From Desulfotignum sp. (GTDB lineage: Bacteria; Desulfobacterota; Desulfobacteria; Desulfobacterales; Desulfobacteraceae), in contig JAZBPL010000036.1 of NCBI GenBank assembly GCA_036351635.1, forward strand, positions 14,928-78,927: a stretch of DNA of 64,000 bases, in the 5' to 3' direction. Positions 5,622-59,312 of this stretch are shown piece after piece; the first letter of the stretch is position 1; every line of letters starts with the position of its first letter. The position numbers and the translations under genes are program-made. The notes beneath the pieces were generated by a model. The model was not told the origin of the DNA. It saw only the letters and a list, made by a program, of their open reading frames with translations, and searched no databases.

Positions 5622-5719
5622 TTTTTATCTTTCCTTTTTTCCTGTCTGTTCCCAAGGGTCTGTTTCCTATCATTGTATATGTGCATCAGAATTCTGTGCC
5701 TGCATCAAAGGAATCTTTT

Positions 5720-35067: not shown

Positions 35068-35820
35068 ATGAAAATTGCCGTATTGTCAGATATTCATGGC
35101 AACCTTGAAGCCCTGCAGACAGTTCTGGGAATAATTCACAACCTGCACCTGGATGAAGTGATTTGCTTAGGAGACAATATCGGATATGGTCCGGATTCCC
35201 AGGCGGTCATGGACCTGCTGACAAAATACGAGATTGCCTCTGTTCTGGGCAACCATGAAATGGCTGTGAAAAACAGGGCCAGCCTGGAGTGGTTCAATCC
35301 CATGGCCCAGAAAGCCCTGGAAATAACCTTGTCACAATTGTCCGGGCCTGCTGTTGCAAAAATCGGCCAGCTGCCCTTTTTTCTGGTGAAATACGGCCTG
35401 CGGTTTGTCCATGGTGTGCCCCCTGCAAATGTATTTTTGTATCTTTTCCAGGTGCCGGAAAAAAAACTGATCCAGAAGCTGGACCGGCTAAAGGAACCAA
35501 TCTGCTTTGTGGGACATACCCATGATCTGGGTATCGTTTCCTGGGACGGCACCTGTCTGACAAGAGACAAACTGGTCCCCGGAATTTGCCAGCTTGATGA
35601 AAAGAAAAAATATATCATCAATGCCGGAAGTGTGGGCCAGCCCAGGGACGGCACCCCTGAAGCCAAATTTCTGGTGTATGACACGCAAACCCGACAATTG
35701 TCTGTCAGGGCGGTGGGTTATTCTTTTGCTGAAACCGGCAGGAAAATTATTGCTGCCGGTATCCCGAAAATATATGCGGAAAAACTGGCTGTTGGTGCTG
35801 ACACTGTGAAAAAGGGATAA
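35068..35820 (+). CDS. Calcineurin-like metallophosphoesterase
   Basis: DIHGN, LGDNIGYG, GNHE, HG, GHTH, NAGSVGQPRDG. Confidence 0.9.
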   Translation: MKIAVLSDIHGNLEALQTVLGIIHNLHLDEVICLGDNIGYGPDSQAVMDLLTKYEIASVLGNHEMAVKNRASLEWFNPMAQKALEITLSQLSGPAVAKIGQLPFFLVKYGLRFVHGVPPANVFLYLFQVPEKKLIQKLDRLKEPICFVGHTHDLGIVSWDGTCLTRDKLVPGICQLDEKKKYIINAGSVGQPRDGTPEAKFLVYDTQTRQLSVRAVGYSFAETGRKIIAAGIPKIYAEKLAVGADTVKKG

Positions 35821-35835
35821 CAAAGAGAAAGTGAG

Positions 35836-37275
35836 ATGAAAAAAATCGGCAGATTCACCATCACAGGCCTGCTGGGAAAAGGGGGCATGGGCAGGGTATA
35901 TAAGATAGCCTATCCTGTCACCCGAAAAATTGCCGCCCTAAAGCTGCTGGAACCTTCTCCTTTGCTGGCCGATCTTACACCACGAAAAGAACTGGAAGAC
36001 ATGTTCACAAAAGAAGCCGTCACCATGGCTGCCATCCGCCATCCCCATGTGGTGGATATTCTGGATTTCGGGCGTACAGGAAACCGGCTGTATTATGTCA
36101 TGGATTATTTTTGCAATAACCTGGGAACCCTTATGGGTGAATCCTTTGAAGAGGATGACACCCGGGTTGTTCCCATTGAAAAAGCGGTACCCTATACCAC
36201 CCAGATATTGAAAGGCCTTGTGTGCCTCCATTTTTCCGGCATTATCCATCGGGATATAAAGCCTGCCAATATGTTGATCACAGATCTGGATACAATAAAA
36301 ATTTGTGATTTCGGCCTGTCCCGGCGCCAGGGAGAGTGGCGAAAGTGGCATGGAAGCACCCGGGTGGGCTCCCCTTATTACGCAGCCCCGGAACAGGAAG
36401 CAGATTCGGAAAAAGTGAATATCACAGCTGATCTGTATTCTGCGGGTATCATATTGTACAAGATGCTCACCGGGCGGCTGCCCCAAAAGAGCGGTTCTCC
36501 GGTATCGCAGATGAACCCGGACCTGGATGTGTCCTGGGACCGGTTTTTTTCCAGAGCCCTTGATCCGGATCCGGCCGGACGGTTCCAGGGGGCGGATACC
36601 ATGTGCCGTTACCTGGAAGACCTGGCCCGGGCCTGGAAAGAAAAAAAAGAGAAAATCTGCTCCATGCCTGCGGGGTTGGAGCAGAAAAGCGGCGATGTGC
36701 CCAAAAAAGCACGGCAGGCAGGAGCAGATCCGGCCGCATCCGGCGATGAAAAAGATGAAAAAACGGGATCAGGGCATTGGGCATCTGACATCAGAAAGCC
36801 TGTTCCGGTGCGCGCTGTTCCTGAAAAAATCCCCTTGAAACAGGCCCGTGCTTTTTTTGATCTGGACCGGTTCATGCAGCCCCGTCGATATGGTGTCAAT
36901 GATTTTTTGTTGTCCAGTAACGGCCTGGTACATGACAGACATACTGCCCTTGTGTGGCAGCAGTCCGGCACCTGGTTTCCTGTTACCTGGTTTCAGGCTG
37001 AAATTTATGTGGAACAGTTGAACAGCATGCAGTTTGGGGGATATGCAGCATGGCGCCTGCCTACCATCCACGAACTGCTCACCCTTGCCGCGCCCCTGGC
37101 CAAGGGCCGGGACCATTGCATGTCACCAGTGTTTGATGCGGAGCAGAAATGGCTGTGGGGTGCTGACAAAAGCACATTTGTGTCAGCCTGGTACATAAAT
37201 CTTGAAATGGGGTTTGTGGGCCGAAATGATTTTACCAGTTTTTACCATGTCAAGGCGGTGTGTTCAGGCTTTTAA
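35836..37275 (+). CDS. Hanks-type Ser/Thr kinase fused to a C-terminal DUF1566 (Lcl-C) domain
   Basis: GKGGMGRVY, ALK, HRDIKPAN, DFG, APE, DLYS.G; then D..T.LVWQ, WRLPTI.EL. Confidence 0.88.
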   Translation: MKKIGRFTITGLLGKGGMGRVYKIAYPVTRKIAALKLLEPSPLLADLTPRKELEDMFTKEAVTMAAIRHPHVVDILDFGRTGNRLYYVMDYFCNNLGTLMGESFEEDDTRVVPIEKAVPYTTQILKGLVCLHFSGIIHRDIKPANMLITDLDTIKICDFGLSRRQGEWRKWHGSTRVGSPYYAAPEQEADSEKVNITADLYSAGIILYKMLTGRLPQKSGSPVSQMNPDLDVSWDRFFSRALDPDPAGRFQGADTMCRYLEDLARAWKEKKEKICSMPAGLEQKSGDVPKKARQAGADPAASGDEKDEKTGSGHWASDIRKPVPVRAVPEKIPLKQARAFFDLDRFMQPRRYGVNDFLLSSNGLVHDRHTALVWQQSGTWFPVTWFQAEIYVEQLNSMQFGGYAAWRLPTIHELLTLAAPLAKGRDHCMSPVFDAEQKWLWGADKSTFVSAWYINLEMGFVGRNDFTSFYHVKAVCSGF

Positions 37276-37779
37276 AGCTGGGAGAATCTTTTTTTTGGTC
37301 TTGGCCCAGGCAACCCGCAGCGCAATATAGATCAGGATGAAGGGGGCGATAAAGTTCAATTCCAGCCCCCCGGTCCAGGCCGGCATGATAAAGCCGATAT
37401 CCCCGAACCGTTTGTCCAGCCATGCGACAGCAAAAAACGCCGGCCACAGGGCGGCCATGCCCATGGCCATGAGCAGGAAAAAGGATTTGCCGTAGGCCTC
37501 GTTGGCCAGTTTATTGATACCTTTGTAGGCTGTTTCATCCCCGGCCTGTTTGGCTTTCATGGATTGTTCATGATAGTACATGGTGTCATCCAGGTTGGTG
37601 GATACGGCAGCCCGGTTGATCCGGCCGGCAACGGCCATGGTTATCTCTCCGATGAGCACGGCCCAGGCCGCCAGGCAGAAGGTGCCTGTCCACCATCCGG
37701 CCATGGGGTTGTCAAAAAGCCGGTATGGATAAATCAACACCGGATCGATCACATTGAGTATGCCCTGAATGGAATCCAT
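37264..37779 (-). CDS. Hypothetical membrane protein (TM, helical hairpin, TM, TM) downstream of tauE
   Basis: Hydrophobic segments flank a charged helical stretch (SMKAKQAGDETAYKGINKLANEAYG). Start inferred. Confidence 0.65.
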   Translation of the reverse strand: MDSIQGILNVIDPVLIYPYRLFDNPMAGWWTGTFCLAAWAVLIGEITMAVAGRINRAAVSTNLDDTMYYHEQSMKAKQAGDETAYKGINKLANEAYGKSFFLLMAMGMAALWPAFFAVAWLDKRFGDIGFIMPAWTGGLELNFIAPFILIYIALRVAWAKTKKKILPALKA

Positions 37780-37954
37780 ATTTATCTTTTCGAAAGTGTT
37801 TCTGCCGGGGGCATCACATGCAGCATCTGCCAGCCCCGGGTATGCAGCAGAAACCAACGGGTGATCAGAGAACGGATGGCTGTCCGCCCCTGAACACCCG
37901 TTGAAACAATATTGTATACCCCCTATATATCAGGCATACACAGTGACCTTTCCA

Positions 37955-39268
37955 CTAAAACGGCGGTACCAGGCTGAATCCCAGAAATCCTTTGGAAGTA
38001 TACCGGATACCCACATAAAACGCAAGAATGATGAAGATCCACTTAAGCACTTTTTCCGGAATATATTTGGAGGTGCGGGGTCCGATCATGGAGCCGATGA
38101 AAATACCGATCAATTCAACACCGATGAATCCCCAGGCAATGACCACGCCTTTGCCCACCATATAGGAAAAAATAGACACGATCATACCCACCAGCACGCA
38201 CAGGGCAGAGGTGCCGGCCACCAGGAACATGGGCAACCCTGCAACAGAAGTCAGAAAAGGCACATAGAGAAATCCGCCGCCCACACCCAGAAAAGATGCC
38301 AGGGCCGCGATCACGATACCACCGATCATGGGCACATATGCTTTGAAGGCAAATTCCTGTCCGTAAAAGGTGAACCTAATGTTGCCGATCATAAAGGTCA
38401 TGGCCCAGCTGACCAGCACCAGGATGTAAGGCACCCATCTGAGTGCGGAAATCAGGTTGATCCACAGGGCGGACAGTACCACAAGACCCACGGCTATCCA
38501 CATAAAGGTCCAGGACCCTTCGATGATTTTAACGCCCTGCTCAGAGGTGTCGGTTTTTTCTCTGGCTGCTTTTTCAAAGGCCTGGGCGGCTGCCTTGGCC
38601 TGTTTTTTACCGGCTGATCCTTTCGGGGTCATTTCATAAATCAGGAAAAATCCAAGCACAAATACGATGAGTCCGAAAAATCCGATATAATCTTTTAAGG
38701 AGATCTTGCCTGCGGTCAGTTCCGGTACCAGCCACGAACCACCCACGCCGCCGATGGCCAGACATATGCCAAGGGGGGCCACCAGGCGGCCCATGCGGTA
38801 GTAGTTGAATGAGGAAATCATCCCGCTCAGACCCACCAGCCACTGGTTGGAAACCCGTATGGAGTCGGTGAGAAGGTTGTTCACCGGGTTGCCTTTGCCA
38901 AAGGATTTGGCATAATCGGCCAGGCCGAAAATCGTGATATGTCCCACTCCGGCCATGATACCGCCGAAGGCCCCCACGGTGGAAAAGATCCAGCCCACCC
39001 AGATGGCCCACAAAAAGCCCAGAATAAGACTGGGGTCAGGGGCTCCCGGGATGCCTAAGAATCCCGGTTCATCTCCGGGTGTGATAATTTCCCTGGTTTT
39101 TGCGGCCATTTCCGGATCTTCAAGACTTGATGCAATGGCTGTTTTCATTTTCTCCGACATGCCAGGCGTTGTTAGGCCTGCCCCTGTCTGGGCCATGGCC
39201 ACTGCCACAAAAGAGAACACAATCATCAGCGCGGTTGCAAGATAAAACCTGGTTCGGTTTACCATCAT
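37955..39268 (-). CDS. TauE/SafE (TSUP) sulfite/organosulfur transporter-family protein
   Basis: VGAFGGIMAG and FLGVGGGFLYVPFL repeats, AGTS, G...GS..G. AAGGAGG RBS. Confidence 0.85.
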   Translation of the reverse strand: MMVNRTRFYLATALMIVFSFVAVAMAQTGAGLTTPGMSEKMKTAIASSLEDPEMAAKTREIITPGDEPGFLGIPGAPDPSLILGFLWAIWVGWIFSTVGAFGGIMAGVGHITIFGLADYAKSFGKGNPVNNLLTDSIRVSNQWLVGLSGMISSFNYYRMGRLVAPLGICLAIGGVGGSWLVPELTAGKISLKDYIGFFGLIVFVLGFFLIYEMTPKGSAGKKQAKAAAQAFEKAAREKTDTSEQGVKIIEGSWTFMWIAVGLVVLSALWINLISALRWVPYILVLVSWAMTFMIGNIRFTFYGQEFAFKAYVPMIGGIVIAALASFLGVGGGFLYVPFLTSVAGLPMFLVAGTSALCVLVGMIVSIFSYMVGKGVVIAWGFIGVELIGIFIGSMIGPRTSKYIPEKVLKWIFIILAFYVGIRYTSKGFLGFSLVPPF

Positions 39269-39368
39269 TTTCCCTCCTTTGGTTGATACATACAAATAAA
39301 TAATTGGGTTTTGAACGCGGATACAGTTTTTGTAAGCCGATTCATTACATTTACATTGTGGTATATTC

Positions 39369-39384
39369 AGCAATATTGGTGCCA
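39369..39384 (-). promoter_or_regulatory. sigma54 promoter of tauE
   Basis: TGGCACCAATATTGCT. Confidence 0.85.
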
Positions 39385-39495
39385 TGGCCCAGTTCCCTGA
39401 TGTATTATTTTCTAACTATTTAAGGTTACAGGGATTTTTTGGAAAAAAGGAAATTTGTGGCAGGGGTGATCTGCATATGTAAGAAAAGGGGGCGG

Positions 39496-39532
39496 CGCAA
39501 TAAAATATATGCGGCGCATGCATTATATTGCA
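39496..39532. promoter_or_regulatory. Tandem enhancer (UAS) candidate, copy 1
   Basis: CGCA-N10-TGCG-g-CGCA-N10-TGCA; aligns without gaps to 48967-49003. Confidence 0.7.
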
Positions 39533-39544
39533 CAAAAAGAATGG

Positions 39545-40936
39545 CTACCGAAAATCTTCCGGATCAATACCAAACCGCTTCATGATCTGCTGCAATGCCT
39601 GGCGGTCCAGGCCGCAATGCCTGGCTGCCTGGGTAATATTGCCGCTGGTCCTGGACAGCATGGCGCCCACATAGTCATGGTTGAACCTGGTGAGCATGGT
39701 TTCCTTGGCTTCTTTATAAGGCATATCCATGATATTGCCGTCCGGGCCGGTATCAAAGCAGATGTCAGGTTCTGTCCTGGAAACAGGGATATCAGCCCTG
39801 CGGATCACCGCATTCTTGGCATAGAGGATACCCTGAACCAGCACGTTTTCCAGCTCCCGGACATTTCCTTTCCATGGGTGTTTCAAGAGCAGGCCCATGA
39901 CATTTTCAGAAATACTCTTTAACGGTTTGTTGAGTTTTTCGCAGTTTTTGGCCACCAGGTGCTCTGCCAGCAGGGGTATGTCTTCAATGCGGTCCCGCAG
40001 GGGAGGCAGTTCAATGGAGATGACAGACAAGCGGTAGAAAAGATCTTCCCTGAACTCTTTTTGGGCAATTTTTTGTGTGAGGTCCTGGTTGGTGGAGGCA
40101 ATGATGCGTACATCCACTTTCTGCACCCGTGTATCCCCTAAAGGCTTGACTTCCTTTTCCTGGATCACCCGCAACAGCTTGGTCTGGATGGACAGTCCGA
40201 TATCCCCGATTTCATCTAAAAAGATCGTGCCTTTGTCTGCTTCCTGGAACAATCCGTTTTTGTCCTGGAATGCGCTGGTAAACGCCCCTTTTTTATGACC
40301 GAACAGCTCGCTTTCCAGGATATGTTCCGGAATGGTGGGGCAGTTCACCGGAACAAAGGCGGCTTTGCTGCGCTGGCTGCGGCGGTGAATGGACCGTGCG
40401 GTGAGGTCTTTGCCGGTGCCTGATTCTCCTGTGATGAGCACGGTGACATCGGAACCGGCCACCAGATCGATTTTTTCAAACACTTTTTCCATGGCCGGGC
40501 TGTGGCCCACCAGGGGAGAAAAGTCTTTGTCTCTGGCCTTGAGCAGCTGTTTGTTTTCCAGAAGCAGCCGGCTGCGTTCTAAAGCCTTGCGGATCTTGAA
40601 AATGATTTCATCCTGTTCAAATGGCTTGGCAATGAAATCATAGGCCCCGCTTTTAATGGCGGTGACGGCAGAATCGATATTGCCGAATGCGGTGAGCATC
40701 ACCACCGTAAGATCCGGATACCGGTTTTTGATCTGTTCCAGCAATGCAAACCCATCCATGCCGGGCATGCGGATATCACATATCACCAGGTCCCAGGTGC
40801 CCTGTTCCAGTATGTTTAAAGCCATTTCCCCGGAAAATGCCATGGAAACCGTGCAGTCAATTTCTGATTCCAGGGTGCGTTTCAGCAGACGGGTCATGTC
40901 TTTTTCATCATCCACAGCCAGGATATGGGCGGTCAT
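39545..40936 (-). CDS. sigma54-dependent response regulator (NtrC family)
   Basis: REC domain (VDDE, DIRMP), GESGTGK, ESELFGH..GAFTSA, FLDEIG, FREDLFYRL, WKGNVRELEN, Fis-type HTH. Confidence 0.93.
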   Translation of the reverse strand: MTAHILAVDDEKDMTRLLKRTLESEIDCTVSMAFSGEMALNILEQGTWDLVICDIRMPGMDGFALLEQIKNRYPDLTVVMLTAFGNIDSAVTAIKSGAYDFIAKPFEQDEIIFKIRKALERSRLLLENKQLLKARDKDFSPLVGHSPAMEKVFEKIDLVAGSDVTVLITGESGTGKDLTARSIHRRSQRSKAAFVPVNCPTIPEHILESELFGHKKGAFTSAFQDKNGLFQEADKGTIFLDEIGDIGLSIQTKLLRVIQEKEVKPLGDTRVQKVDVRIIASTNQDLTQKIAQKEFREDLFYRLSVISIELPPLRDRIEDIPLLAEHLVAKNCEKLNKPLKSISENVMGLLLKHPWKGNVRELENVLVQGILYAKNAVIRRADIPVSRTEPDICFDTGPDGNIMDMPYKEAKETMLTRFNHDYVGAMLSRTSGNITQAARHCGLDRQALQQIMKRFGIDPEDFR

Positions 40937-42459
40937 CTGGTTTTCTCCCTGTCAGGGTTATCGTCTGCAGCCCCGGCCCGGGGCAGGCTGATGGTGAAGG
41001 CAGCACCTTTTTCTTTTCTGTTTCTGGCTGTGATATCTCCTCCGTGCCGCCGGATAATGCCGTACCCGACGGAAAGCCCCAGTCCAGTGCCCTGGCCCAC
41101 AGGCTTGGTGGTGAAAAACGGGTCAAAGATCCGGGAAAAATCCTTTTCCCGGATACCGGTGCCGTTGTCTTTCACCGTTATCAGCACCTGGTCCTGGTCA
41201 TCTGTACCTGTTTCCACCAGGATGCGGCCTGTTTTTTCCACTGCATGGCAGGCGTTGATCATCAGGTTGATAATGACCTGTGCCAGCTCCTGTTCATTGC
41301 CGAAAACCTTTAACGGCCCTGTGCACGGACCAGGAGATGTCACCTGTACATTTTTGAAGTCGGAATGGTTGCCCAGAAAACTGATTACATCATCCACCAC
41401 CTTGCATACATCAATGGGCTGCATTTTTGTTGACCCTTTTCTGGAAAAGGTCAACAGGTCAGATACCACAATCTTACAGTTTTTCACATGCTTTTCAATG
41501 GTTTTCAGGTCTTCCTCATGGTCCCCGGGATTTTTGAGCATCAGCTGGGTATATCCCAGGATGATACCTAAAGGGTTGTTGATTTCATGGGCCACGCCGG
41601 CGGATAATTCTCCTAAGGCCGCCAGTTTGTCAGCCTGGGCAATCTGCTGCTCCATCTGCCGTTTATCATTGATGTTCTTGATGATAAAATGAAAAGTTTT
41701 GCCGCAGCCAAAAGCACCATAGTCCACACCCCCGGTGATGAGTACCCTGACGAAGGACCTGTCGGCACGCAGAAAATCGGTTTCTTCATTCAGGACATAC
41801 TCATGGGTTTCCAGAAGCTTGAAAATCCGCTCATTTTCAGATGGGATGGTTAAAAAATCTTTGAGCCCCATTTTTTTGTCCAGCATGTCTGCTTTCTGAA
41901 ATCCGGTGAGGGCCACCCCGGCCCGGTTGATTTCAACAATATTGAACCAGGGATCCGTCACCATAATGGTGTCCAGTGAATGTTCAAAAATCCGCCTGGC
42001 CTTGTGCTCGGAACTGGTGAGCATTTCAGTTCTTTCCACGACCTTCTGCTCTAAGGTCTGGTTCAGTTCCAGCAGTTTGGCACTGGTATCTTCCTGTTTC
42101 TGTTTGGCGGACAGGATTTTTTCATTGATGCGCCAGCTCTGGTTGAAAAACAGGGTCACCGTTCCCACCAGCATGAAGGATATGGTGTTGATAGCACCGG
42201 TATAGGGGCCGATATCATGCCATATGTCCCCACTGCCGGTGAGCACCAGAAACTGCCGCAGAATATGGCTCAAGGACCGGGATACCGCAAATATGGTGAA
42301 TCCGGCACAGATCCAGATCAAATAGAGGAATACAACGTTGTCCGGGTCAAGATCCCGAAGTGACCTGGCCTTGAACAGGGACAAAACCCCCAGCGCCACC
42401 ATGGCCACTGAGCCCAGCACATCCACCAGCAGAATGGGTAGATTGGCAGTCATTGTCAC
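40933..42459 (-). CDS. Membrane sensor histidine kinase (TM-PAS-HisKA-HATPase)
   Basis: AGVAHEINNPL, NL..NA, DNGTG, FDPFFTTK..GTGLGL. Confidence 0.92.
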   Translation of the reverse strand: MTMTANLPILLVDVLGSVAMVALGVLSLFKARSLRDLDPDNVVFLYLIWICAGFTIFAVSRSLSHILRQFLVLTGSGDIWHDIGPYTGAINTISFMLVGTVTLFFNQSWRINEKILSAKQKQEDTSAKLLELNQTLEQKVVERTEMLTSSEHKARRIFEHSLDTIMVTDPWFNIVEINRAGVALTGFQKADMLDKKMGLKDFLTIPSENERIFKLLETHEYVLNEETDFLRADRSFVRVLITGGVDYGAFGCGKTFHFIIKNINDKRQMEQQIAQADKLAALGELSAGVAHEINNPLGIILGYTQLMLKNPGDHEEDLKTIEKHVKNCKIVVSDLLTFSRKGSTKMQPIDVCKVVDDVISFLGNHSDFKNVQVTSPGPCTGPLKVFGNEQELAQVIINLMINACHAVEKTGRILVETGTDDQDQVLITVKDNGTGIREKDFSRIFDPFFTTKPVGQGTGLGLSVGYGIIRRHGGDITARNRKEKGAAFTISLPRAGAADDNPDREKTR

Positions 42460-42929
42460 ACCCCATCTGCACTGTCAGACCGTTGTTTCTGGTCCTTGAG
42501 CAGGCTGTTCAGTCCCATTAACAAAAAAACCATGGCCGGGACACACCACAGGTGATCCATTTTGAGAACGTAGTAGATCACAGCCAGGAGCTGAGAGTCG
42601 GACTGGGTGACAACGGCCATTCTGGTTATGCTCAGGGTTTCGATGCGCACCACTTCAATCTGGTTATCCAGAAAATGGGCTGCCAGGGTATCCAGGTTCC
42701 AGAAGATGAAAAACAGGGCTGTAACCTGTATCAGCCGCCATCCCTTCTGCCGGATCAATCCCTGGTTGTTGATGGTGAACATGAGGGCCACCATGGAAAA
42801 CAAAAAAAACAGATGCCCTATCTGATGGGCGATAATACCGGCATTGCCGGTATGCAGCTGGATGGCAAATGCCGGTGCCGGCAGACCCCATACCCCTGCC
42901 AGGCAGAGGAGACAAACCGCGGGTTTCAT
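42456..42929 (-). CDS. Small membrane protein coupled to the kinase (putative accessory sensor)
   Basis: Signal-like N-terminus plus about 3 TM segments. 4-bp overlaps with both neighbours. Confidence 0.7.
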   Translation of the reverse strand: MKPAVCLLCLAGVWGLPAPAFAIQLHTGNAGIIAHQIGHLFFLFSMVALMFTINNQGLIRQKGWRLIQVTALFFIFWNLDTLAAHFLDNQIEVVRIETLSITRMAVVTQSDSQLLAVIYYVLKMDHLWCVPAMVFLLMGLNSLLKDQKQRSDSADGV

Positions 42930-43684
42930 TTTTTTAAGTGTGCCATTTCCGTGACAGCACGGGTGGACATGAGTTTTACACAGGCCGGACACAGGCTGTG
43001 GTGCTCTTTGGTATCCGGATGATCCGGGCTGATATGGGACACCCGGTTCAGAAAATCCGATGTGGCATACATGCGGCCGCATGCCTCGCACCGTTCCAGG
43101 GGGAGCTGCCCCACGGTGCGGTCCTGGATGGCCACGGTTCTCACACTGTCATGGTCCGTCACCGTGATTACGCCGGTGGGACAGAGATTGGCACAGGTAC
43201 CGCAGCCGATGCACTGGCCGTCTCCTTTTACCACCTGGCTGCCGGCCGCGGTTTTTTCCATTTTCAGCGCTCCGGCCTTGACGATCTCCTGGCAGACCCG
43301 GATGCACAGCCGACACCGGATGCAACCATCCGGTTCCGGGGGCAGGTCCACCTGGTATCTATGGGCCAGGTCCCTGATCCGATGGGCCTGGGGAGCCATG
43401 CGGAATAACCGGACAAACGCTTTCTGACGGTGGGATCTGACCAGCGGAGAATCTGTGCGTATCACCATCCCGGGTTTTACCTTGAGGACGCAGGACAGCA
43501 TCACTGTCTGCCTGCCTGTGGGGGAGGTAACCTCTACACCGCAGATCCGGCAGGCGCCCGAGGGCTTCAATGCCGGATGAAAACACAGGTGTGGGATGCT
43601 GATATTGTTTTTCCGGGCAGCTTCCAGTACGGTCTGGCCTTCGTTGCATGGGATGGCTGTATTGTCAATGAAAATTTCAATCAT
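42926..43684 (-). CDS. [2Fe-2S] + 2x[4Fe-4S] protein (NuoG N-terminus/HoxU-like)
   Basis: IPHLC..GACRICGVE..SC, CIRCRLCIRVC, CIGCGTCANLCP, CEACG..CPAC. Confidence 0.88.
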   Translation of the reverse strand: MIEIFIDNTAIPCNEGQTVLEAARKNNISIPHLCFHPALKPSGACRICGVEVTSPTGRQTVMLSCVLKVKPGMVIRTDSPLVRSHRQKAFVRLFRMAPQAHRIRDLAHRYQVDLPPEPDGCIRCRLCIRVCQEIVKAGALKMEKTAAGSQVVKGDGQCIGCGTCANLCPTGVITVTDHDSVRTVAIQDRTVGQLPLERCEACGRMYATSDFLNRVSHISPDHPDTKEHHSLCPACVKLMSTRAVTEMAHLKK

Positions 43685-43704
43685 GGGAGATCCATCCTTG
43701 TCCT

Positions 43705-43923
43705 TTACCGCGTATCCGAAAGGATCCGGAGACAGTCCTGGGGCAGGCGGTGGGTGCCTTTGCCCTGGAGGCTCACCTCTATGAGATCATCCGGATCATT
43801 GATGGAGGTATCCGGATCAGTCACCACCCCGTGGACACCGATAAAATCATTCATATAGGGCTCCCAGGCTTCATCTGTCGATGCCTGGAACACTTCCACA
43901 CGATTGCCGCGTTTAAACATCAT
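43705..43923 (-). CDS. Small acidic hypothetical protein inside the oxidoreductase operon
   Basis: AAGGAGG RBS; fills the gap between two co-oriented genes. Confidence 0.7.
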   Translation of the reverse strand: MMFKRGNRVEVFQASTDEAWEPYMNDFIGVHGVVTDPDTSINDPDDLIEVSLQGKGTHRLPQDCLRILSDTR

Positions 43924-43934
43924 AACAGCCTCCT

Positions 43935-46100
43935 TTATGTTGGGTTGACAGGCCGGGTCGGTACATGATTTTTCGCTGACAGCCTGCGCTGGCAGTCGTT
44001 ACACAAAAGCCGCTGCTCCGCCTTCTGGGTCAGGTCTGCGGTTTTGTCCGAAATAAAGGCCATATACTGGGCTGACGGCAGCCTGGCCCCACAGGCATCA
44101 CAGGTCTGAATCTCCTGCTCGTTGAGGATGGTGCCGCAGAGTTTGAGCATCCGTCTGCCGTCTTTTTCTTCCAGGGTCATGGCATTGTTTTCACAATTGG
44201 CTGCACAGGCCCCGCAGGTGATACAGTTTTCCGCCGTCATTCGAAAATCGGTTTTCACCGGGTGGTCAAAATCCAGGTATCCCAGATGCAGGGCATCAAT
44301 ACCCATTTTGTCCCGGCAGACTTCCACGCATTTACCGCACCTTCTGCAGACATCACACCGCAGACACCGCCGGGCTTCCTTTCGCACAGCGGCTTCATCA
44401 TATCCCAGTTCCACCTGCTGAAAGGTGGTCCGTCTTCTGTCCACATTGAGCATGGGCATGACCGGCCGGGAAAGCCGCATTTTTTCAGCTGCCGTCATTT
44501 CGATCATGGGGACTTTGCGGCGGCGCACCGGAATTTTGGGCATCCTGGGCTGGGGCATGCCGGTGAGGTGCCGGTGGATGGCCTCGGCAGCCCGTTTGCC
44601 GCCGCCGATGGCTTCAATTACTGTTGCAGGACCCGAGACCGCGTCTCCTGCGGCAAACACCCCGGGCATACTGGTTTCCATGGAAGCATGGTTCACTTCA
44701 ATGGTGCCCCTGCGGGTCCAGTTGACTGCATCAAAAGCGGTCATGCCGCTGTCATCCACATACTGGCCAATGGCGGATATGACGGCATCTGCCTGGATGG
44801 TAAACTCCTTGCCCAGGATGGGAACCGGTGCCAGGCGGTCCGTCCCTTTTTTGGCGATCAGCTCCGCTTTGATACAGGCAAGGCCGGTGATCCTGCCATC
44901 ATTGCCTGTAATCTCCGTGGGGATGGTGAGAAAGGCAAACGCAATGCCCTCTTCTTCCGCCTGCTCCACTTCCTCGATATCAGCCGGCATCTGTTCTCTG
45001 GATCTGCGGTAGGCAATGGTGACTTTTTCGGCCCCCAGACGCAGGCTGGTGCGGGCAGCATCAATGGCCACGTTTCCGCCGCCGATGACCACCACATGCT
45101 TGCCCGGTGCATGGCGGTCCCCTATGGCCACATTCTTTAAAAATGTGATGGCATCAATGACCCTGGGAAAATCTGTTTCCCCTTTGATGCCAAGGTCCCA
45201 GGCCTTGTGGGCACCGATGGCCAGAAAAAAGGCATCTGTGCCTTTGGTTTTCATGTCTTCATAGGTGACATCCGAGCCGAACCGGGTGTTGAAAGAAAAG
45301 GTCACCCCCAGGTCTTCTATCATGGCCACTTCCCGGTCAATCACCTCCCGGGGCAGGCGGTACCGGGGAATGCCCACCATGAGCATGCCGCCGGCAAAGG
45401 GAAGGGATTCGATCACTTCCACCTTGTATCCCATCAGGGCAAGATAATATGCGCAGGACAACCCCCCCGGCCCGGCTCCCACCACACAGATGCGTTTTCC
45501 ATTGGGGGGAGCCGGTTCCGGGTTGGTATACCGCCGGTCCGACAATGCCCGTTCCGCGGCAAAAGCCTTGAGAAATTTGATGGAGATGGGGGTGTCGATA
45601 CGCCCCCTGACACACATCATTTCACAGGGCCGGGTGCACACCAGGCCACAGACCCAGGGAAGAGGATTGTCCTCCCGGATTACGGCGATGGCCTGGTCAT
45701 CTTTCCCCTCGGCAATAAGGGCCAGATAGGTGGGTACATCAATGCCGGCAGGACAGGCCATCTGGCAGGGAGAAGGCGCAATTACCCCGCAGTCATGGGA
45801 TGGGCAGTTCCGGGTTTCAATATGGCTGACAAACTCTTCCCTGCGGTCTGACAGAATGTGTTTCAAGTGGTCAAGTGTCTTGGTTGCGGTGTCATCCGGG
45901 GTTCTGTTTTCAAATTCGGCCATCAGGTCGTCAATGGCGGCCATATGGCTGTCCCCGGCCTCTCCCAGGGATATTTCCTCCACCAGCATCCGGATTGATT
46001 CACATATCCGCCGCACCTTGGGGTCTGTCAGGACACCGGATGCAATACGATCAGACAGGTATTGCAGGGTTGACTGTACCGGACAGGTGTCTTTGGCCAT
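43935..46100 (-). CDS. FAD/Fe-S NAD(P)H-dependent oxidoreductase (GltD/SudA/NfnB-like core with extra Fe-S domains)
   Basis: PCQMACP, CGLVCTRPCE..C, GAGPGG, GIPRYRLP, GGGNVAIDAAR, YRRS, FAAGD; C-terminal 2x[4Fe-4S]. Confidence 0.9.
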   Translation of the reverse strand: MAKDTCPVQSTLQYLSDRIASGVLTDPKVRRICESIRMLVEEISLGEAGDSHMAAIDDLMAEFENRTPDDTATKTLDHLKHILSDRREEFVSHIETRNCPSHDCGVIAPSPCQMACPAGIDVPTYLALIAEGKDDQAIAVIREDNPLPWVCGLVCTRPCEMMCVRGRIDTPISIKFLKAFAAERALSDRRYTNPEPAPPNGKRICVVGAGPGGLSCAYYLALMGYKVEVIESLPFAGGMLMVGIPRYRLPREVIDREVAMIEDLGVTFSFNTRFGSDVTYEDMKTKGTDAFFLAIGAHKAWDLGIKGETDFPRVIDAITFLKNVAIGDRHAPGKHVVVIGGGNVAIDAARTSLRLGAEKVTIAYRRSREQMPADIEEVEQAEEEGIAFAFLTIPTEITGNDGRITGLACIKAELIAKKGTDRLAPVPILGKEFTIQADAVISAIGQYVDDSGMTAFDAVNWTRRGTIEVNHASMETSMPGVFAAGDAVSGPATVIEAIGGGKRAAEAIHRHLTGMPQPRMPKIPVRRRKVPMIEMTAAEKMRLSRPVMPMLNVDRRRTTFQQVELGYDEAAVRKEARRCLRCDVCRRCGKCVEVCRDKMGIDALHLGYLDFDHPVKTDFRMTAENCITCGACAANCENNAMTLEEKDGRRMLKLCGTILNEQEIQTCDACGARLPSAQYMAFISDKTADLTQKAEQRLLCNDCQRRLSAKNHVPTRPVNPT

Positions 46101-46113
46101 GGGTCACGCTCCT

Positions 46114-46629
46114 TTAAAAGCTGCTGTTCTCTAAGGATGCCACAGATTCTGCATGGCGCTGCCGCCGGATCTGGGTCATTTCCTCCACTTTCCCGAACTT
46201 CAGGCACCCGGTGGTGCAGGTGGTGACACAGGCAGGTTCCAGACCCTGGTCCACCCGGTCCTTGCAGTAATCACATTTTTCCACTTTTCCCGTGTCCGGA
46301 TTCCACTGGGGCGCTCCCCAGGGACATGCGGACACACAGGTTTTGCATCCCACGCACAGGTCTTTCTGCACAAACACGATGCCGTCCGAAGCCCGCTGCT
46401 GCATGGCCCCTGTGGGGCAGGCAGATACGCACCAGGGGTTCTCACAGTGAAAACAGGGCATGAAGATAAACGACATCTTGGGCAGGTTGTTGATAAATTT
46501 GGGCCCCACCTGGATGATCTGGCAGGGTTTGGGGCCTTCGGGCAGGTCTTTATTGGTTTTGCACTGGATCTCACAGGCGTGGCACCCAATGCATTTTTTA
46601 CTGTCCTGGAACAGGTAATACTGGCTCAT
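46114..46629 (-). CDS. 4x[4Fe-4S] subunit (PhsB/PsrB/DmsB-like)
   Basis: CIGCHACEIQC, CFHCENPWCVSACP, CVGCKTCVSACP, KCDYC..PACV. Confidence 0.92.
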   Translation of the reverse strand: MSQYYLFQDSKKCIGCHACEIQCKTNKDLPEGPKPCQIIQVGPKFINNLPKMSFIFMPCFHCENPWCVSACPTGAMQQRASDGIVFVQKDLCVGCKTCVSACPWGAPQWNPDTGKVEKCDYCKDRVDQGLEPACVTTCTTGCLKFGKVEEMTQIRRQRHAESVASLENSSF

Positions 46630-46649
46630 TCATTGCCTCCTTATGAAAA

Positions 46650-48731
46650 TTACACCGGGGTCACGGTGACAAAGGTATCATGGTATGCCGGGCTTCCCCC
46701 GACTTTATCATACAGATTTTCCTGGAGCAGGGCATCTGAACATCCCTGATTGTAGGACCGTTTTGCCAGTTTGGCCTCGTGTCCGAATCCGTGGACCATG
46801 AACACCGCTTCAGGATGGATCAAATCTGTGACAAAGGCTTTGATCCATCCTTTTCCGCAGGCAGAGGCCACCTCCACTGTGGCACCGTCTGTAATGCCCA
46901 GGTCAGCCGCTTTCTCCTTATTGATCCACAGCAGGTTTTCTTTCATCAGCTCATTGAGATACGGGACATTCTGGGTGGAAATATGGGTATGGAGGCCGGT
47001 GCGGCCCACCACCAGGCGGAACTTTTTTTCCGGTGTTGCCGCCGGAGCTTCATAGGACGGAAAAGAGGGAAAACCGGCATCCTCAAGCAGGGATGATCTG
47101 AATTCAATCTTTTTGGACGGGGTCTTGAAGGGGATGTCGTTTCTGTCCCAGAATATGGGGGATTTGCCGTAACTGACAAAGCCTTTTTGGGCAAAATCCT
47201 CTCGGGTGAACCCGGTACCTTCCAGCTGCCAGTCCACCAGCTCGTCCATGGTCTCATAGGGAAAATAATCCCCTATACCCAGCCGCTCGCCGAGGCGCTT
47301 GAGAATGATGGCACCCTCTACGGTGTCATACCGGGGCTCCACAGCTTTTTCACGCAGAAACATCATGGGTTTTAGGCCGTTCATCTGCTGGACGCAGTCC
47401 GTACGCTCCAGATAGGTGGATTCAGGCAGAATGACATCAGAATACCAGGCAATGTCTGAATAATTGATGTCAATGGTGACGATAAGATCCAGTTTGTCCA
47501 GGGCTTTTTTTGTACCGCTGGTATCAGCAATTGACATAAGGGGGTCCAGGCGGTAGTTGATCAATGCCTTTATGGGATAGGGATCTTCGTTGAGAATGGC
47601 ATATGGCAGGATCTGGGCCACACCATGGGCAGGATCAGGCAGCGGAAAATCCGGTGTTCCGACCTTGTCAAAACGCGGCACCTCTATTTTGGGAAATTCC
47701 TGTTCCGTGAGTTTTCTGGCAGGCTTACCGCCTTCGGCTCCCGGGCCTTTTTTAAAGAAAATCCCGCCCTTTGCTTCCACAGATCCCATCAGGGCGTTGA
47801 GCATAAGAATGGACCGGCGCATGTATATTTCATTCTGGTGGCTGGCGCAACGATACCCGTAATGAAAAATAACCGCTGGTTTTTCCCGGCTTATCTCTCT
47901 GGCCAGGGCCTTGATTTCCCCGGCCGGAATCCCGGTTTCGGTTTCCGCCCATTCCGGGGTGTATTCCTTTATAAAATCCCGCAGATCGGTGAGGCCGTGT
48001 ACCCATTTTTCCACAAATTCTGCATCATAGAGGCGTTCTTTTAAAATGACGTGGATCAGGCCGTAGTTGAGGGCCAGGTCGGTCCCCGGCCGGATCATCC
48101 AGTACCGGTGGGCCTTGGAGGCTGTGACATTCACCCGGGGATCGATATAGGTGAGCTTTGCCCCTTTTTCAAGGGCATCCATCAGGGTGTTCACCTCTTT
48201 GACATTGATAGATTCAAAAATGTTTCTGCCGTAAAGAACAATATGTTTTGTATTGGCGTAATTGATACCCATCTGGCCGTCAGTATACCCGAACATGGAG
48301 CGGCAGGCCGTGTTCATAGATCCTTTGCAGAGCGCATCATGGGTGAAATGGTTGGGGGAGCCCAAAGCCTTTAAAAAGGTTTTGCTCACATGGGTGGCCA
48401 GCTGGGCCCGTTCACCCAGGGCAATGGCATGGCCGCCATGGGTATCCTTGATTTCTTTAAGTCTGGTTCCCACATAGTCAAGGGCCTCTTCCCATGAGGC
48501 TTTCCGCCAGTTTCCCGACCCCCTGTCCCCCACCCGGATAAGGGGGGACTGGAGCCGCTGGTCATCATAAAGCAGGGATTTGCCGGCTGACCCCCTGGGG
48601 CACAAACGGCCGTCTATCCCCGCCACATGGGGGTTTCCCTGGATCCAGTTCACATGCCCGTCCCTGACACCGACTTTTATGGGACACCTGACCGAACACA
48701 TGAAACACAAACTGAACACGTCTTTATCCAT
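46650..48731 (-). CDS. bis-MGD molybdopterin oxidoreductase, thiosulfate/polysulfide reductase (PhsA/PsrA)-like, no Tat signal
   Basis: CFMCSVRC..LCPRG immediately after the start, GSPNHFTHDALC (Cys ligand region), IRPGTDLA, SDVILPESTYLER, HGFG. Confidence 0.85.
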   Translation of the reverse strand: MDKDVFSLCFMCSVRCPIKVGVRDGHVNWIQGNPHVAGIDGRLCPRGSAGKSLLYDDQRLQSPLIRVGDRGSGNWRKASWEEALDYVGTRLKEIKDTHGGHAIALGERAQLATHVSKTFLKALGSPNHFTHDALCKGSMNTACRSMFGYTDGQMGINYANTKHIVLYGRNIFESINVKEVNTLMDALEKGAKLTYIDPRVNVTASKAHRYWMIRPGTDLALNYGLIHVILKERLYDAEFVEKWVHGLTDLRDFIKEYTPEWAETETGIPAGEIKALAREISREKPAVIFHYGYRCASHQNEIYMRRSILMLNALMGSVEAKGGIFFKKGPGAEGGKPARKLTEQEFPKIEVPRFDKVGTPDFPLPDPAHGVAQILPYAILNEDPYPIKALINYRLDPLMSIADTSGTKKALDKLDLIVTIDINYSDIAWYSDVILPESTYLERTDCVQQMNGLKPMMFLREKAVEPRYDTVEGAIILKRLGERLGIGDYFPYETMDELVDWQLEGTGFTREDFAQKGFVSYGKSPIFWDRNDIPFKTPSKKIEFRSSLLEDAGFPSFPSYEAPAATPEKKFRLVVGRTGLHTHISTQNVPYLNELMKENLLWINKEKAADLGITDGATVEVASACGKGWIKAFVTDLIHPEAVFMVHGFGHEAKLAKRSYNQGCSDALLQENLYDKVGGSPAYHDTFVTVTPV

Positions 48732-48781
48732 AATTTTTTGTCTCCTTGGCAACATCAATTTTAATCATGTGGGGTTTTTCT

Positions 48782-48798
48782 TGCCATAAGCGTGCCAA
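48782..48798 (-). promoter_or_regulatory. sigma54 promoter of the molybdoenzyme operon
   Basis: TTGGCACGCTTATGGCA (GG-N10-GC). Confidence 0.7.
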
Positions 48799-48966
48799 CA
48801 TGCAACTTCCATGAAGAAAATCTTAAAAAAATCAAAGTTGCAACAAAGAATGCTTCAGTTAAAGGGAAATATGTTATAATAAACCATTGTTTATAAACTG
48901 GGCCAAAAAATTCTGAAAAGCAAGACAATTTTACAGGCCCAAATCAGGGTAGGTTGGCGGGGGGTA

Positions 48967-49003
48967 TGCAATAAAAAATATGCAGTGCAATATTTTTACT
49001 GCA
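48967..49003. promoter_or_regulatory. Tandem enhancer (UAS) candidate, copy 2
   Basis: TGCA-N10-TGCA-g-TGCA-N10-TGCA. Confidence 0.7.
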
Positions 49004-51954: not shown

Positions 51955-52347
51955 TTGTATATTCTTGATACCAATACACTCATCTATTTCTTCAAGGGTG
52001 CCGGTAATGTCGCGGATATGCTGCTTTCAAAATCCCCAAAGGATATTGGTATTCCGGCAATTGTTCTTTTTGAACTTGCGCTTGGTATTGCCAAATCAAC
52101 AAACCCGACAAAAAGGAAAATTCAGTTGGATTTGCTGGTCTCCCATGTCAATATTTTTCCTTTCGGGGCAAAAGAAGCTGAAAGTGCCGCAATGATAAGG
52201 GCGGACCTTGAAAAAAAAGGGATGCCCATCGGGCCGTATGACACATTGATCGCAGGTACGGCATTGGCTGCAAATGCCATTCTTGTAACCCACAATGTAA
52301 GAGAATTTGAACGGGTCAGTGCCCTGACACTTGAGGATTGGTATTAA
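51955..52347 (+). CDS. vapC: VapC PIN-domain toxin
   Basis: YILDTN, FEL..G, IGPYDTLIAG, LVTHNVREF. Confidence 0.92.
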   Translation: MYILDTNTLIYFFKGAGNVADMLLSKSPKDIGIPAIVLFELALGIAKSTNPTKRKIQLDLLVSHVNIFPFGAKEAESAAMIRADLEKKGMPIGPYDTLIAGTALAANAILVTHNVREFERVSALTLEDWY

Positions 52348-53112: not shown

Positions 53113-53934
53113 TCACTGGCAGCGCCAGGACACATATTCGGACAAAGCAACCGGCTGTCCGGACTTGAGCAGGGCGATGCGGTTGAAATCGGTCATTTTT
53201 TGCAGCTGGTCTGAATGGAATACCGGGCCGTCCGTGCACACCACCTGGTCACTGCATACACAGGCACCGCACACCCCGAACCCGCACCGCATATACCTCT
53301 CCAGAGATACCTGGCAGGGGATGCCGTGGGCTTGGCACAGGGTGAAGACCGCATGCATCATCATTTCCGGTCCACAGGCATAGACCATGTCAAACTGCAG
53401 CTGTGCCTTATCTTTCCTGCGCCGGATCTCTGCTGCCAGCAGATCAGTGACAAATCCTTTGTGTCCCAGGCTGCCGTCATCTGTTGTAAAATAACGTTTG
53501 ACTGCGAACCGCTGTGGATACAGGATAAAATCCTTTGTTCTGGCCCCGTGGACAAAGAACAGGTTCGGATCCAGTTGTTCCACCAGGGGGGCCAACGGCG
53601 CCATCCCGCAGCCGCCGGCCACCACCGCAACATGCGGAGAGGAAATGATGTCAAACCCGTTGCCGAAAGGCCCCCGGATGCCTACCCAATCTCCCGGGGA
53701 CAGGGACAGGGCCTGGTTGGAAAATCTTCCTTTGGCCTCGATGGTGATGCCGAACCGTTCCGGCCCATGATAGGAAATGGTGTAGGGTTTTTCATCCACC
53801 CCCGGGAGCCAGACCATGATGAACCGGCCCGGCTGAAAATCGATGGCCACATCAAAAAACAGGGTGACAAAACAGGGGTTGTGCATGGTTTTTCTGGCCA
53901 CCTGGACCATGACGGGTTTCTGGTCAAAAATCAT
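53113..53934 (-). CDS. pyrK: Dihydroorotate dehydrogenase B electron-transfer subunit
   Basis: RGPFGNGF, AGGCGMAP, CGPEMMM, ERYMRCGFGVCGAC..VC.DGPVF. Confidence 0.92.
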   Translation of the reverse strand: MIFDQKPVMVQVARKTMHNPCFVTLFFDVAIDFQPGRFIMVWLPGVDEKPYTISYHGPERFGITIEAKGRFSNQALSLSPGDWVGIRGPFGNGFDIISSPHVAVVAGGCGMAPLAPLVEQLDPNLFFVHGARTKDFILYPQRFAVKRYFTTDDGSLGHKGFVTDLLAAEIRRRKDKAQLQFDMVYACGPEMMMHAVFTLCQAHGIPCQVSLERYMRCGFGVCGACVCSDQVVCTDGPVFHSDQLQKMTDFNRIALLKSGQPVALSEYVSWRCQ

Positions 53935-54902
53935 GGGGTGTTTTTCCTGTGCTGGTTGGCAAGGTCTTTTGAAATGGAAACCGGATCATTGAAGGTCCTG
54001 CCTGCAGGATGGTGTGCCGCACCGATGACCGCTTCTCTGTTGGTTTCATGGGCACCCAGCCAGTCGACAAGTTCCCGGTTCACCTTGTCAAACACCTGGA
54101 TGCCCCGGTAACGCACAGCAGATCCCATACCCACCAGGGTGGCGCCCGCCATGAACATCTCCACGGCATCCGCGCCCGTGGTGACCCCCCCTAAACCGAT
54201 GATCGGGATGGACACGGCCCTGAAGATGTCATACACGCATCGGATCGCAATGGGTTTGATCATGGGGCCGGACAGGCCCCCTTTTTTGAATGCCAGCACC
54301 GGCATTTTTGTTTCGATGTCTATGACCATGCCGGGGCCGGCCGTGTTGATGGCGCAGATGGCATCTGCACCCGCATCTTCACATGCTTTTGCAATGCGGC
54401 CGATATCCGGGGCTGCCGGCGTTAGCTTGGCGATCAGCGGCACATCAATGACGTGTTTCACCGCAGCCGTGACAGCATGGGCTGCTTTTTCATCCACCCC
54501 GAACAGCATGCCGTGGTGATCGGAATTGGGGCAGGAGATGTTGATTTCAATGCAGTCGGGTCCCTGGTCCGACACAAAGCGGGCCACTTCAGCAAACTCA
54601 GCCACTGACCCGCCGTAGATGCTGGCATTGAGGGGAAAATCCCGGTCCGCCAGGGCCTGCCATTCCGCATCCATGTTGCCGTATCCAGGGGTGGGCAGAC
54701 CCACAGCATTGATCATGCCGCACCCCAAGTCAATGACCGTGGGGTTGTTGTGGCCGTCCCGCCGGTTCGGGCCGATGGATTTCATGGTCACCAGGCCGCA
54801 TCCGGCCCCATGGACCCGGGACAGGATGCCGGCATTGTTGCCCAGGATGCCCGAGGCCAGCACAAGGGGGCTTTTTAACTGTATTCCCAGAAATTCAGCC
54901 AT
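53931..54902 (-). CDS. pyrD: Dihydroorotate dehydrogenase, class 1B catalytic subunit
   Basis: LASG, MINAVGL, EINISCPN, AKLTP, AINT, GGLSGP.IKP. Confidence 0.93.
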   Translation of the reverse strand: MAEFLGIQLKSPLVLASGILGNNAGILSRVHGAGCGLVTMKSIGPNRRDGHNNPTVIDLGCGMINAVGLPTPGYGNMDAEWQALADRDFPLNASIYGGSVAEFAEVARFVSDQGPDCIEINISCPNSDHHGMLFGVDEKAAHAVTAAVKHVIDVPLIAKLTPAAPDIGRIAKACEDAGADAICAINTAGPGMVIDIETKMPVLAFKKGGLSGPMIKPIAIRCVYDIFRAVSIPIIGLGGVTTGADAVEMFMAGATLVGMGSAVRYRGIQVFDKVNRELVDWLGAHETNREAVIGAAHHPAGRTFNDPVSISKDLANQHRKNTP

Positions 54903-56123: not shown

Positions 56124-56141
56124 TGCATGCTCCTTGTTATG

Positions 56142-56750: not shown

Positions 56751-56759
56751 GGCAGCTCC

Positions 56760-57392: not shown

Positions 57393-57403
57393 GCAAAATA
57401 TCC

Positions 57404-59300: not shown

Positions 59301-59312
59301 GATGTTGTACCG

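Follow-up and report, generated by a model that had tools for sequence, protein, structure and literature searches.

Thiosulfate reductase PhsABC of Salmonella and polysulfide reductase PsrABC of Thermus combine a catalytic subunit carrying molybdenum-bis(pyranopterin guanine dinucleotide) (Mo-bisPGD), a cysteine ligand and an N-terminal [4Fe-4S] cluster with a four-cluster subunit B and a membrane anchor (PhsC or PsrC); they have a twin-arginine translocation (Tat) leader, act in the periplasm and are fed by quinol. Here we describe a ten-gene locus in a 64,000-nucleotide stretch of Desulfotignum sp. DNA (assembly GCA_036351635.1, contig JAZBPL010000036.1; the whole stretch is called the window) that encodes counterparts of the first two subunits, but is predicted to operate in the cytoplasm and to be fed by pyridine nucleotides. 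Since there is no leader and no anchor, the locus is not a member of PhsABC although it is PhsAB-like, and since BfuB and BfuC are missing it is not a Bfu system. We read it, at a probability of roughly 60%, as encoding NADPH-driven cytoplasmic thiosulfate reduction, with its own importer and sigma54 control.

PhsAB-like enzymes of this kind have been reported from other Desulfobacterota. DITHS69_2028/2027 of D. thermophilus are Tat-less and anchor-less, as at our locus, and PhsA-1 and PhsA-2 of D. dissulfuricans likewise occur without a subunit C, both species' enzymes being linked to thiosulfate by proteomics; these enzymes, and that of D. sulfexigens, are of the CGMC type, whereas the CFMC enzymes of Desulfatibacillum and Desulfotomaculum are listed as PhsA (PMC12998232). 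The MOLY cluster of the same paper encodes an exported MolyAB and a TorD/DmsD chaperone; our locus has neither leader nor chaperone gene. In D. thermophilus the Tat-less enzyme and a TauE protein with its partner are up under thiosulfate disproportionation; the electron donor was guessed, and characterisation of the cytoplasmic enzyme was called for (PMC13490349, 2026). In their available text, these reports contain no biochemistry of the cytoplasmic enzymes and, unlike what is predicted here, no NADPH donor module. The original prediction that the system is undescribed was therefore overstated for the enzyme and the co-induced TauE pair, which are in print, and stood for the donor module: no account of PhsAB coupled to an NADPH or Bfu-remnant module was found in the literature searched, which covered few subscription journals and also included PMC4001038, PMC12318220, PMC6378623, PMC10989961, PMC9723548 and PMC5840216. 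The catalytic core belongs to a kind already known but not characterised; what is new is the donor module, its proposed Bfu ancestry, the swapping of modules and the shared promoter element.

The features of the locus are as follows.

48968..48989, minus strand: 22-bp upstream element, common with the tauE promoter; likely sigma54-activator binding site
48782..48797, minus strand: sigma54-type -24/-12 promoter motif, 66 nt ahead of the molybdenum gene A
46650..48731, minus strand: A, Tat-less PhsA/PsrA-type Mo-bisPGD subunit, 693 aa (domains, tree, alignment)
46114..46629, minus strand: B, PsrB/PhsB-like subunit of 171 aa with four [4Fe-4S] clusters and a basic tail at the C-terminus
43935..46100, minus strand: C, 721-aa fusion of a putative BfuB remnant, an NfnA/StnC-type flavin adenine dinucleotide (FAD)/NADP(H) module and a WorA-like C-terminus
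43705..43923, minus strand: D, conserved 72-aa SH3-like protein, likely an accessory subunit (alignment, model)
42926..43684, minus strand: E, Type-2 BfuA/WorA-like iron-sulfur protein, 252 aa (WorA match, invariant cysteines)
42456..42929, minus strand: F, membrane protein outside known families, 157 aa, likely a sensor accessory (linkage with the kinase)
40933..42459, minus strand: G, membrane histidine kinase with PAS, HisKA and HATPase domains
39545..40936, minus strand: H, NtrC-type sigma54 response regulator, GAFT at 217 (domains)
39497..39518, minus strand: second copy of the 22-bp upstream element
39369..39384, minus strand: sigma54-type -24/-12 promoter motif, 116 nt ahead of tauE
37955..39268, minus strand: I, TauE/TSUP permease, 437 aa, likely a thiosulfate importer (Pfam, gene order)
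37264..37779, minus strand: J, 171-aa membrane partner of TauE (linkage after TauE)

All ten minus-strand open reading frames (ORFs) between 37264 and 48731 were verified, and the domain scan agrees with the families first named for them. It found Molybdopterin, Fe4S4 and Molydop_binding domains in A, a 4Fe-4S dicluster in B, Fer4_20 and Pyr_redox_2 in C, Fer2_4 and Fer4 in E, PAS-HisKA-HATPase in G, receiver-sigma54-HTH in H and TauE in I, while D, F and J matched no family in Pfam or NCBIfam. From A to H the genes are separated by 11-20 bp or overlap by 4 bp; wider gaps follow, of 276 bp ahead of tauE and 175 bp ahead of J. The ten genes probably form two transcription units, with a separate sigma54-type promoter for each.

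Catalytic subunit A and electron-transfer subunit B

The gene for A starts with an ATG at 48731, preceded by a GGAGA ribosome site, and its product carries iron-sulfur cysteines at residues 9, 12, 16 and 44. The missing twin-arginine leader had been noted correctly, whereas the iron-sulfur motif, placed from residue 8, has its first cysteine at residue 9. A motif scan, as opposed to a trained predictor, found no RR within the first 50 residues of A and no hydrophobic helix, and no such helix was seen in B to E either. The predicted molybdenum ligand, Cys135, is invariant in the A sequences compared. A shares 35% identity with Salmonella PhsA, to which its TH..C ligand motif and its G.R motif also align, and its best solved relative is PsrA (2vpw, E 5e-114).

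The position of A within the Psr/Phs group, as proposed at the outset, was upheld by both tree programs. In an IQ-TREE analysis of 40 rows, the Tat-less proteins form a clade (support 100/99) whose sister is enterobacterial PhsA (95/88); both fall within the Psr/Phs group (98/99), and the Arr-, Ttr-, Dms- and Fdh-like rows are placed elsewhere. FastTree on 90 rows gave the same topology shape. One row (L198_2) was left out, and characterised PsrA, SoeA and SreA are not among the rows. The Tat-less clade has two main branches, CFMC, to which A belongs, and CGMC, which are 44-49% identical. An orphan second Tat-less PhsA-type gene of the CGMC clade (46%) lies on a 2.4-kb contig of the same genome (G000:C207:90-2174); in relatives L023, L039 and L040 this type of orphan has no adjoining B gene, and it might use the B-C module in trans.

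Among 201 genomes sampled across the phylum, 73 had a Psr/Phs-type match and 51 of these were classed as Tat-less type by identity, with direct checks for the fetched ones; the Tat-less A family is present in about a quarter of the genomes sampled. In 60 regions fetched from these matches, all 44 molybdenum subunits at 37.5-72% identity lacked a Tat motif and 15 at 29-38% identity carried one, while two proteins at 30-31% identity lacked the motif and were placed outside the Psr/Phs group. Downstream ORFs that encode NrfD or cytochrome b numbered 0/31 from Tat-less loci as against 9/14 from Tat loci, in a scan that left out ORFs already assigned to B or C. At our locus the domain scan found no NrfD/PhsC anchor gene within the cluster, in line with the original prediction, and the five NrfD genes of the genome are all on other contigs. 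The genome itself is 85% complete and encodes both dsrA and rpoN. The nearest named relatives are Desulfotignum (87-99%), and among the other genomes of this genus 20 of 21 gave a match at E 1e-100.

The C-terminal tail of B is basic in 11/11 aligned loci with an adjacent donor module and absent in 4/4 bare loci, and in five Tat loci it is of a different kind; the rows of this alignment were hand-picked.

The predicted donor module C-D-E and its exchange between loci

Three described systems bear on C and E. NfnA and StnC, of NfnABC and StnABC, share with C the FAD/NADP(H) module, the Lys-ligated proximal cluster and the following iron-sulfur domain; our locus differs in having no BfuBC core or Fdh-like domain, a putative BfuB remnant at the N-terminus of C and a molybdoenzyme as the coupled partner. 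The flavin-bifurcating NfnSL has Glu at the proximal cluster and an NfnS partner. WorABCSL of Acetomicrobium mobile (9mqx), a Type-2 Bfu complex, resembles the locus in that WorA is matched by E over its full length and in the four-Cys finger common to E and C; its catalytic subunit is a tungsten aldehyde oxidoreductase, whereas ours is a molybdoenzyme of the DMSO reductase family, and the NADP(H) module takes the place of BfuB and BfuC.

The core of C matches NfnA/StnC at E 1e-115 to 6e-102 and GltD at E 2e-71. Its first description as a GltD/SudA-like NADP(H) flavoprotein thus held for the NADP-type site and not for GltD as the closest relative. C contains K178, GGGNVA at 340 and an invariant YRR at 364, the latter two being an NADP-type motif. 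The invariant K178 aligns with NfnA K170, the Lys ligand of the FAD-proximal cluster. In the StnC paper, that FAD is read as non-bifurcating, with Glu in the bifurcating NfnB (cluster-ligand roles used for C are drawn from PMC9304861, PMC11829005 and PMC10482914). Since its proximal cluster is Lys-ligated, the FAD module of C is probably non-bifurcating; the position holds Lys instead of Glu, and the domain scan found no NfnS-like gene at the locus.

The first 104 residues of C align without gaps to the C-terminal part of BfuB from L066 (19%, E 9e-4). Residues C6, H93, C99 and C104 are invariant across 43 sequences, and their spacing of 87/6/5 is that of the B2 ligands of BfuB (PMC9304861), with Ser or Ala at the fifth position. 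C therefore keeps four of the five B2 ligands; the B1 cysteines are replaced and the flavin mononucleotide (FMN) domain is lost, and the domain scan found neither a Complex1_51K domain nor BfuC at the locus. Taken together, C would be a Bfu module in reduced form whose entry point is NADP(H). Homologues of BfuB and BfuC are found elsewhere in the genome, on contigs C162 and C45, and contig C17 has a BfuA-like gene after a BfuB end.

The last 135 residues of C share homology with E over its C-terminal half (probability 99.4) and comprise a WorA-like pair of [4Fe-4S] clusters, a four-Cys finger and a helix. E is composed of a [2Fe-2S] cluster, two [4Fe-4S] clusters and a four-Cys finger, with invariant cysteines, and its best solved relative is WorA (9mqx_A, full-length match, E 1.9e-53). 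In the published account of WorABCSL, the four-Cys finger and helix of WorA bring in the S subunit with its four clusters, and a nanowire is built by the C-terminal helix of S. A complex prediction of C with B scored 0.00, which counts neither for nor against binding. For D, an alignment of 43 homologues was obtained, and a model (pLDDT 82.5) has SH3-like barrels as fold neighbours (best Z 8.3); no function was adopted from this fold, as the barrel is common and the Atlas neighbours are hypothetical proteins, DUF2862 and the FTR variable chain. The 201 genomes contain 14 strong matches and one weak match to D, and all 14 strong ones fall within the 51 genomes with Tat-less-type A.

Conservation of the gene order was assessed in 590 related stretches, of which the best 80 were kept (61-99% identity), so the sample is biased to close relatives. 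Among the 59 of these with at least 4.5 kb downstream, B was present in 58, the core of C in 57 and its N-terminal domain in 51, D in 49 and E in 46; the conserved order that had been suggested is thus borne out, the C core following A-B in 57/59 assessable loci. Three loci (L034-L036) have the B-C-D-E module with an A of the CGMC clade (44-49%), while B is still 65-80% identical to ours, and here the catalytic subunit appears to have been exchanged.

Where C is absent, Bfu, Rnf or complex-I-like genes are often in its place. L066 and L140 have the order A-B-BfuC-BfuB-BfuA'-E, so that C stands in place of BfuC, BfuB and BfuA'. Other loci encode longer NuoF-GltD fusions or C-like proteins that retain B1-like cysteines, and a graded decay of the bifurcating Bfu module into an NADPH-only one is visible across loci. 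An rnf-like gene cluster directly follows A-B at L032:5000-14935, and in seven loci (L166, L169, L177, L181, L225, L230 and L231) Tat-less phsAB lies beside complex-I-like NuoA/B/D genes, possibly encoding a membrane-bound, ion-driven thiosulfate reductase. Four loci (L164, L171, L176 and L179) are bare A-B or A only. From these arrangements, A-B would seem to take whichever low-potential supply adjoins it.

Several single loci deserve mention. In Desulfofundulus australicus (L117:12646-15441) the homologue of C still has B1-like cysteines, and it forms a fusion protein with an MCP signalling domain. Two genomes of the genus (L030:1590-9422 and L031) have A-B with a C-like gene at 63% and 38%; at L030 these adjoin genes whose N-termini we take, by eye, to be corrinoid methyltransferase-like. 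Genome G008 carries a second whole-operon copy (L038, G008:C6) with many frameshifts, either decay or an assembly error.

Promoters, the upstream element and the TauE pair

The -24/-12 motif is present upstream of tauE in 30/36 loci, as against 0/86 for B and <0.4% of shuffles. Over the whole window seven such motifs were found where 4.5 are expected, which is not above chance, so the support is positional. About 115-170 nt upstream of each of the two motifs lies a 22-bp element, the copies being identical at 19/22 positions. These are the only two copies in the window, and none was found in 100 shuffles, with a pattern built from the same two sites; the element is conserved among aligned relatives, and a relaxed form occurs in 17/231 loci, several of which are identical or overlapping stretches. 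The simpler pattern TGCA-N10-TGCA was rejected as not above chance, and sigma70 and terminator scans gave nothing informative. H is the candidate protein for binding the 22-bp element. We infer that tauE-J would be the conserved regulon target, to which the enzyme operon may have been added in this lineage.

In the 32 loci with long flanks on both sides, TauE and J were present in 19, F and the kinase in 16 and the regulator in 17; TauE and the sigma54 system, first assigned to the locus from the window alone, are thus carried by related loci. F has three hydrophobic stretches, its gene overlaps the kinase gene and it accompanies the kinase in related loci; the Atlas clusters found for it are hypothetical proteins only. 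RNA-library contigs (four runs, three studies) span both units, including genes not used as bait, with little flank; they come from relatives and could be non-transcript, and so lend weak support only.

I matches Pfam TauE (PF01925) at 65.2 bits against a cut-off of 32.6. In 4/9 fetched loci (L223, L224, L225 and L228), homologues of I and J (47-55% and 31-37%) start the order TauE, J, PtxB-like, kinase, receiver, PPDK-like, phosphatase, and two of these loci adjoin Tat-less phsAB; L222 has the same seven genes with J moved, L227 and L229 have the order in part, and L226, L230 and L231 do not have it. TauE loci of the f34 family (L209-L213) were rejected as matches, as they do not show this order. 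The same order is found in the 'nitrate cluster' of Desulfovibrio (DVU0251-0245, Dde_0598-0605) whose loss confers nitrate resistance, and its authors propose a leaky thiosulfate importer. Compared by gene order, that cluster shares with our locus a TauE protein and a conserved membrane partner, whereas our pair lacks the PtxB, PPDK and phosphatase genes and is under a sigma54 kinase and regulator. The TauE pair likely imports thiosulfate, to judge from this neighbourhood; the original prediction had left open whether TauE supplies or drains, and thiosulfate import is the more likely of the two, sulfite drain the less. I-type TauE occurs in 29/51 genomes with Tat-less-type A as against 8/150 others, and in an 81-genome sample of another order TauE is found in 59 genomes, A in 48 and both in 45, within 16 kb of each other in 26; related genomes are not independent in these co-occurrence counts. 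Two TauE genes near one phsAB were seen twice, with a second, different TauE at L219 and a tandem duplicate at L231.

Proposed thiosulfate reduction and alternative readings

In the proposed mechanism, the TauE pair (I, J) would bring in thiosulfate, which A-B would cleave in the cytoplasm to sulfide and sulfite. Electrons would pass from NADPH to the FAD of C, along the iron-sulfur chain of C to its WorA-like C-terminal end, and from there through the four clusters of B to the molybdenum in A, with E as a second docking subunit and D as an accessory subunit. Sulfite would be removed by DsrAB, so that cleavage could stay downhill with neither an anchor in the membrane nor proton motive force, and the kinase/regulator pair (G, H) would switch on both units through sigma54. 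The midpoint potentials are -402 to -420 mV for thiosulfate, -320 to -370 mV for NADPH and -74 mV for menaquinol. Calculated from these for 1 mM thiosulfate, 1 mM sulfide and 1 uM sulfite, NADPH-driven cleavage is downhill by 15-28 kJ/mol, and menaquinol-driven cleavage is uphill, by 29 kJ/mol under these conditions and by 29-50 kJ/mol over all cases computed. A cytoplasmic enzyme beside DsrAB would therefore need no anchor.

How electrons reach low-potential thiosulfate cleavage in sulfate reducers and disproportionators is an open question, for which the locus names a predicted donor (NADPH via C) and offers a candidate importer and a candidate regulator with a putative binding site. The genus has cultured type species that grow on thiosulfate, so that the question can be put to a direct test; in D. 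phosphitoxidans, a thiosulfate user, a PhsAB is annotated that may or may not correspond to this locus (PMC4046663). In D. alaskensis, mutants in a putative PhsAB (Dde_1076:1075), not placed in a clade, are least fit on thiosulfate (PMC4215793). PhsA of O. marinus, of unplaced clade, yields H2S in E. coli, and the PhsAB of D. amilsii was rejected as a match, as it has a Tat leader.

Several points weigh against NADPH-driven thiosulfate reduction as read here. The NCBIfam PhsA score of A is 622 bits, under the cut-off of 694; monophyly of the Tat-bearing rows, when forced together, is not rejected (p 0.0503), PhsA being a single long branch in the tree; and with characterised PsrA, SoeA and SreA outside the tree, Phs and Psr identity of A cannot be told apart. 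No member of the Tat-less CFMC clade has been assayed, and the proteomic evidence comes from its sister, the CGMC clade, at 44-49% identity. The D. dissulfuricans PhsAB without C, for which its authors state that functional analysis was lacking, is presented as perhaps not a major player (PMC9751629, 2022), and the fitness loss in D. alaskensis, although specific to thiosulfate, is mild (PMC4215793). At 1 mM sulfite and with standard-state NADPH, cleavage is near equilibrium. The -24/-12 motif is found upstream of A in just 10/93 loci, mostly Desulfotignum/Desulfobacula-like. I-type TauE is missing from 22/51 genomes that have a Tat-less-type A. The link of I to DVU0251 is drawn from gene order rather than sequence, and the thiosulfate phenotype of that cluster is cited by its authors from unpublished fitness data.

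The same wiring may serve another substrate, such as polysulfide, tetrathionate, a persulfide or another oxyanion. The closest solved structure is a polysulfide reductase, PsrA, database names read 'thiosulfate/polysulfide reductase chain A', and the genome holds two A paralog clades whose active-site surroundings differ and which may therefore differ in substrate. We consider this unlikely, since the clade of A is sister to PhsA, the locus is linked with a TauE family tied to thiosulfate, and relatives show thiosulfate phenotypes. Rather unlikely, too, is a split electron-confurcating system in which E recruits a BfuBC core from elsewhere, or ferredoxin, and the reaction is driven by NADH and ferredoxin or by NADPH with bifurcation. 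E is a full-length WorA-like BfuA at a locus without BfuBC, homologues of which lie on C162 and C45; the A-B-BfuC-BfuB-BfuA'-E loci and the four B2 ligands kept in C point the same way. Against it, the FMN domain and B1 cysteines are gone from C, its FAD module is of the non-bifurcating type, and the other BfuBC genes may have BfuA partners of their own, such as that on C17.

It is improbable that the enzyme runs in reverse, oxidising sulfite or sulfide to make NADPH while TauE exports sulfite. The TauE family takes its name from sulfite export, a possible exporter role was given to the D. thermophilus TauE by its authors (PMC13490349) and Nfn-type modules are reversible, but there is no SoeC-type anchor, A is placed beside PhsA in a tree without SoeA, and nitrate is no longer toxic when the matching Desulfovibrio cluster is lost, as would be expected of an importer; for sulfite oxidation, which had also been suggested at first, no evidence was found at this locus. 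We give just as little credence to A-B and C-D-E being neighbours and not partners, with A-B fed by a quinol-linked anchor or other carrier encoded elsewhere. The bare loci, the orphan paralog on C207 and the five NrfD genes elsewhere would agree with this; C, however, follows A-B in nearly all assessable loci and remains beside B even where A is of the other clade, the basic tail of B goes with an adjacent donor module, and menaquinol-driven cleavage is uphill.

Beyond NADPH-driven thiosulfate reduction itself, a more speculative and doubtful extension is that the basic C-terminal tails of B let its copies stack into an iron-sulfur nanowire, as in WorABCSL. This would be plugged at the WorA-like finger of C into an NADPH-only Bfu descendant and at E into a bifurcating core in trans, the same unit being swapped across sulfate reducers between NADPH, Bfu, Rnf and complex-I-like supplies. 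If so, the swapped supply would set whether a species only respires thiosulfate or also disproportionates it.

Elsewhere in the window, a metallophosphoesterase gene and a Ser/Thr kinase gene with a C-terminal Lcl domain (35068-37275) are convergent with the operon end and adjoin it also in L021 and L022. Short ORFs at 1621-2031, 24589-24963 and 51955-52344 have N-termini that by eye we presume to be of the PIN-domain (VapC-type) kind. Genes for a choline dehydrogenase-like GMC oxidoreductase and an aldehyde:ferredoxin oxidoreductase-like protein lie at 3933-8190, and a complete nqrABCDEF-like operon occupies 54909-60746 on the minus strand, followed by dihydroorotate dehydrogenase genes at 53113-54902.

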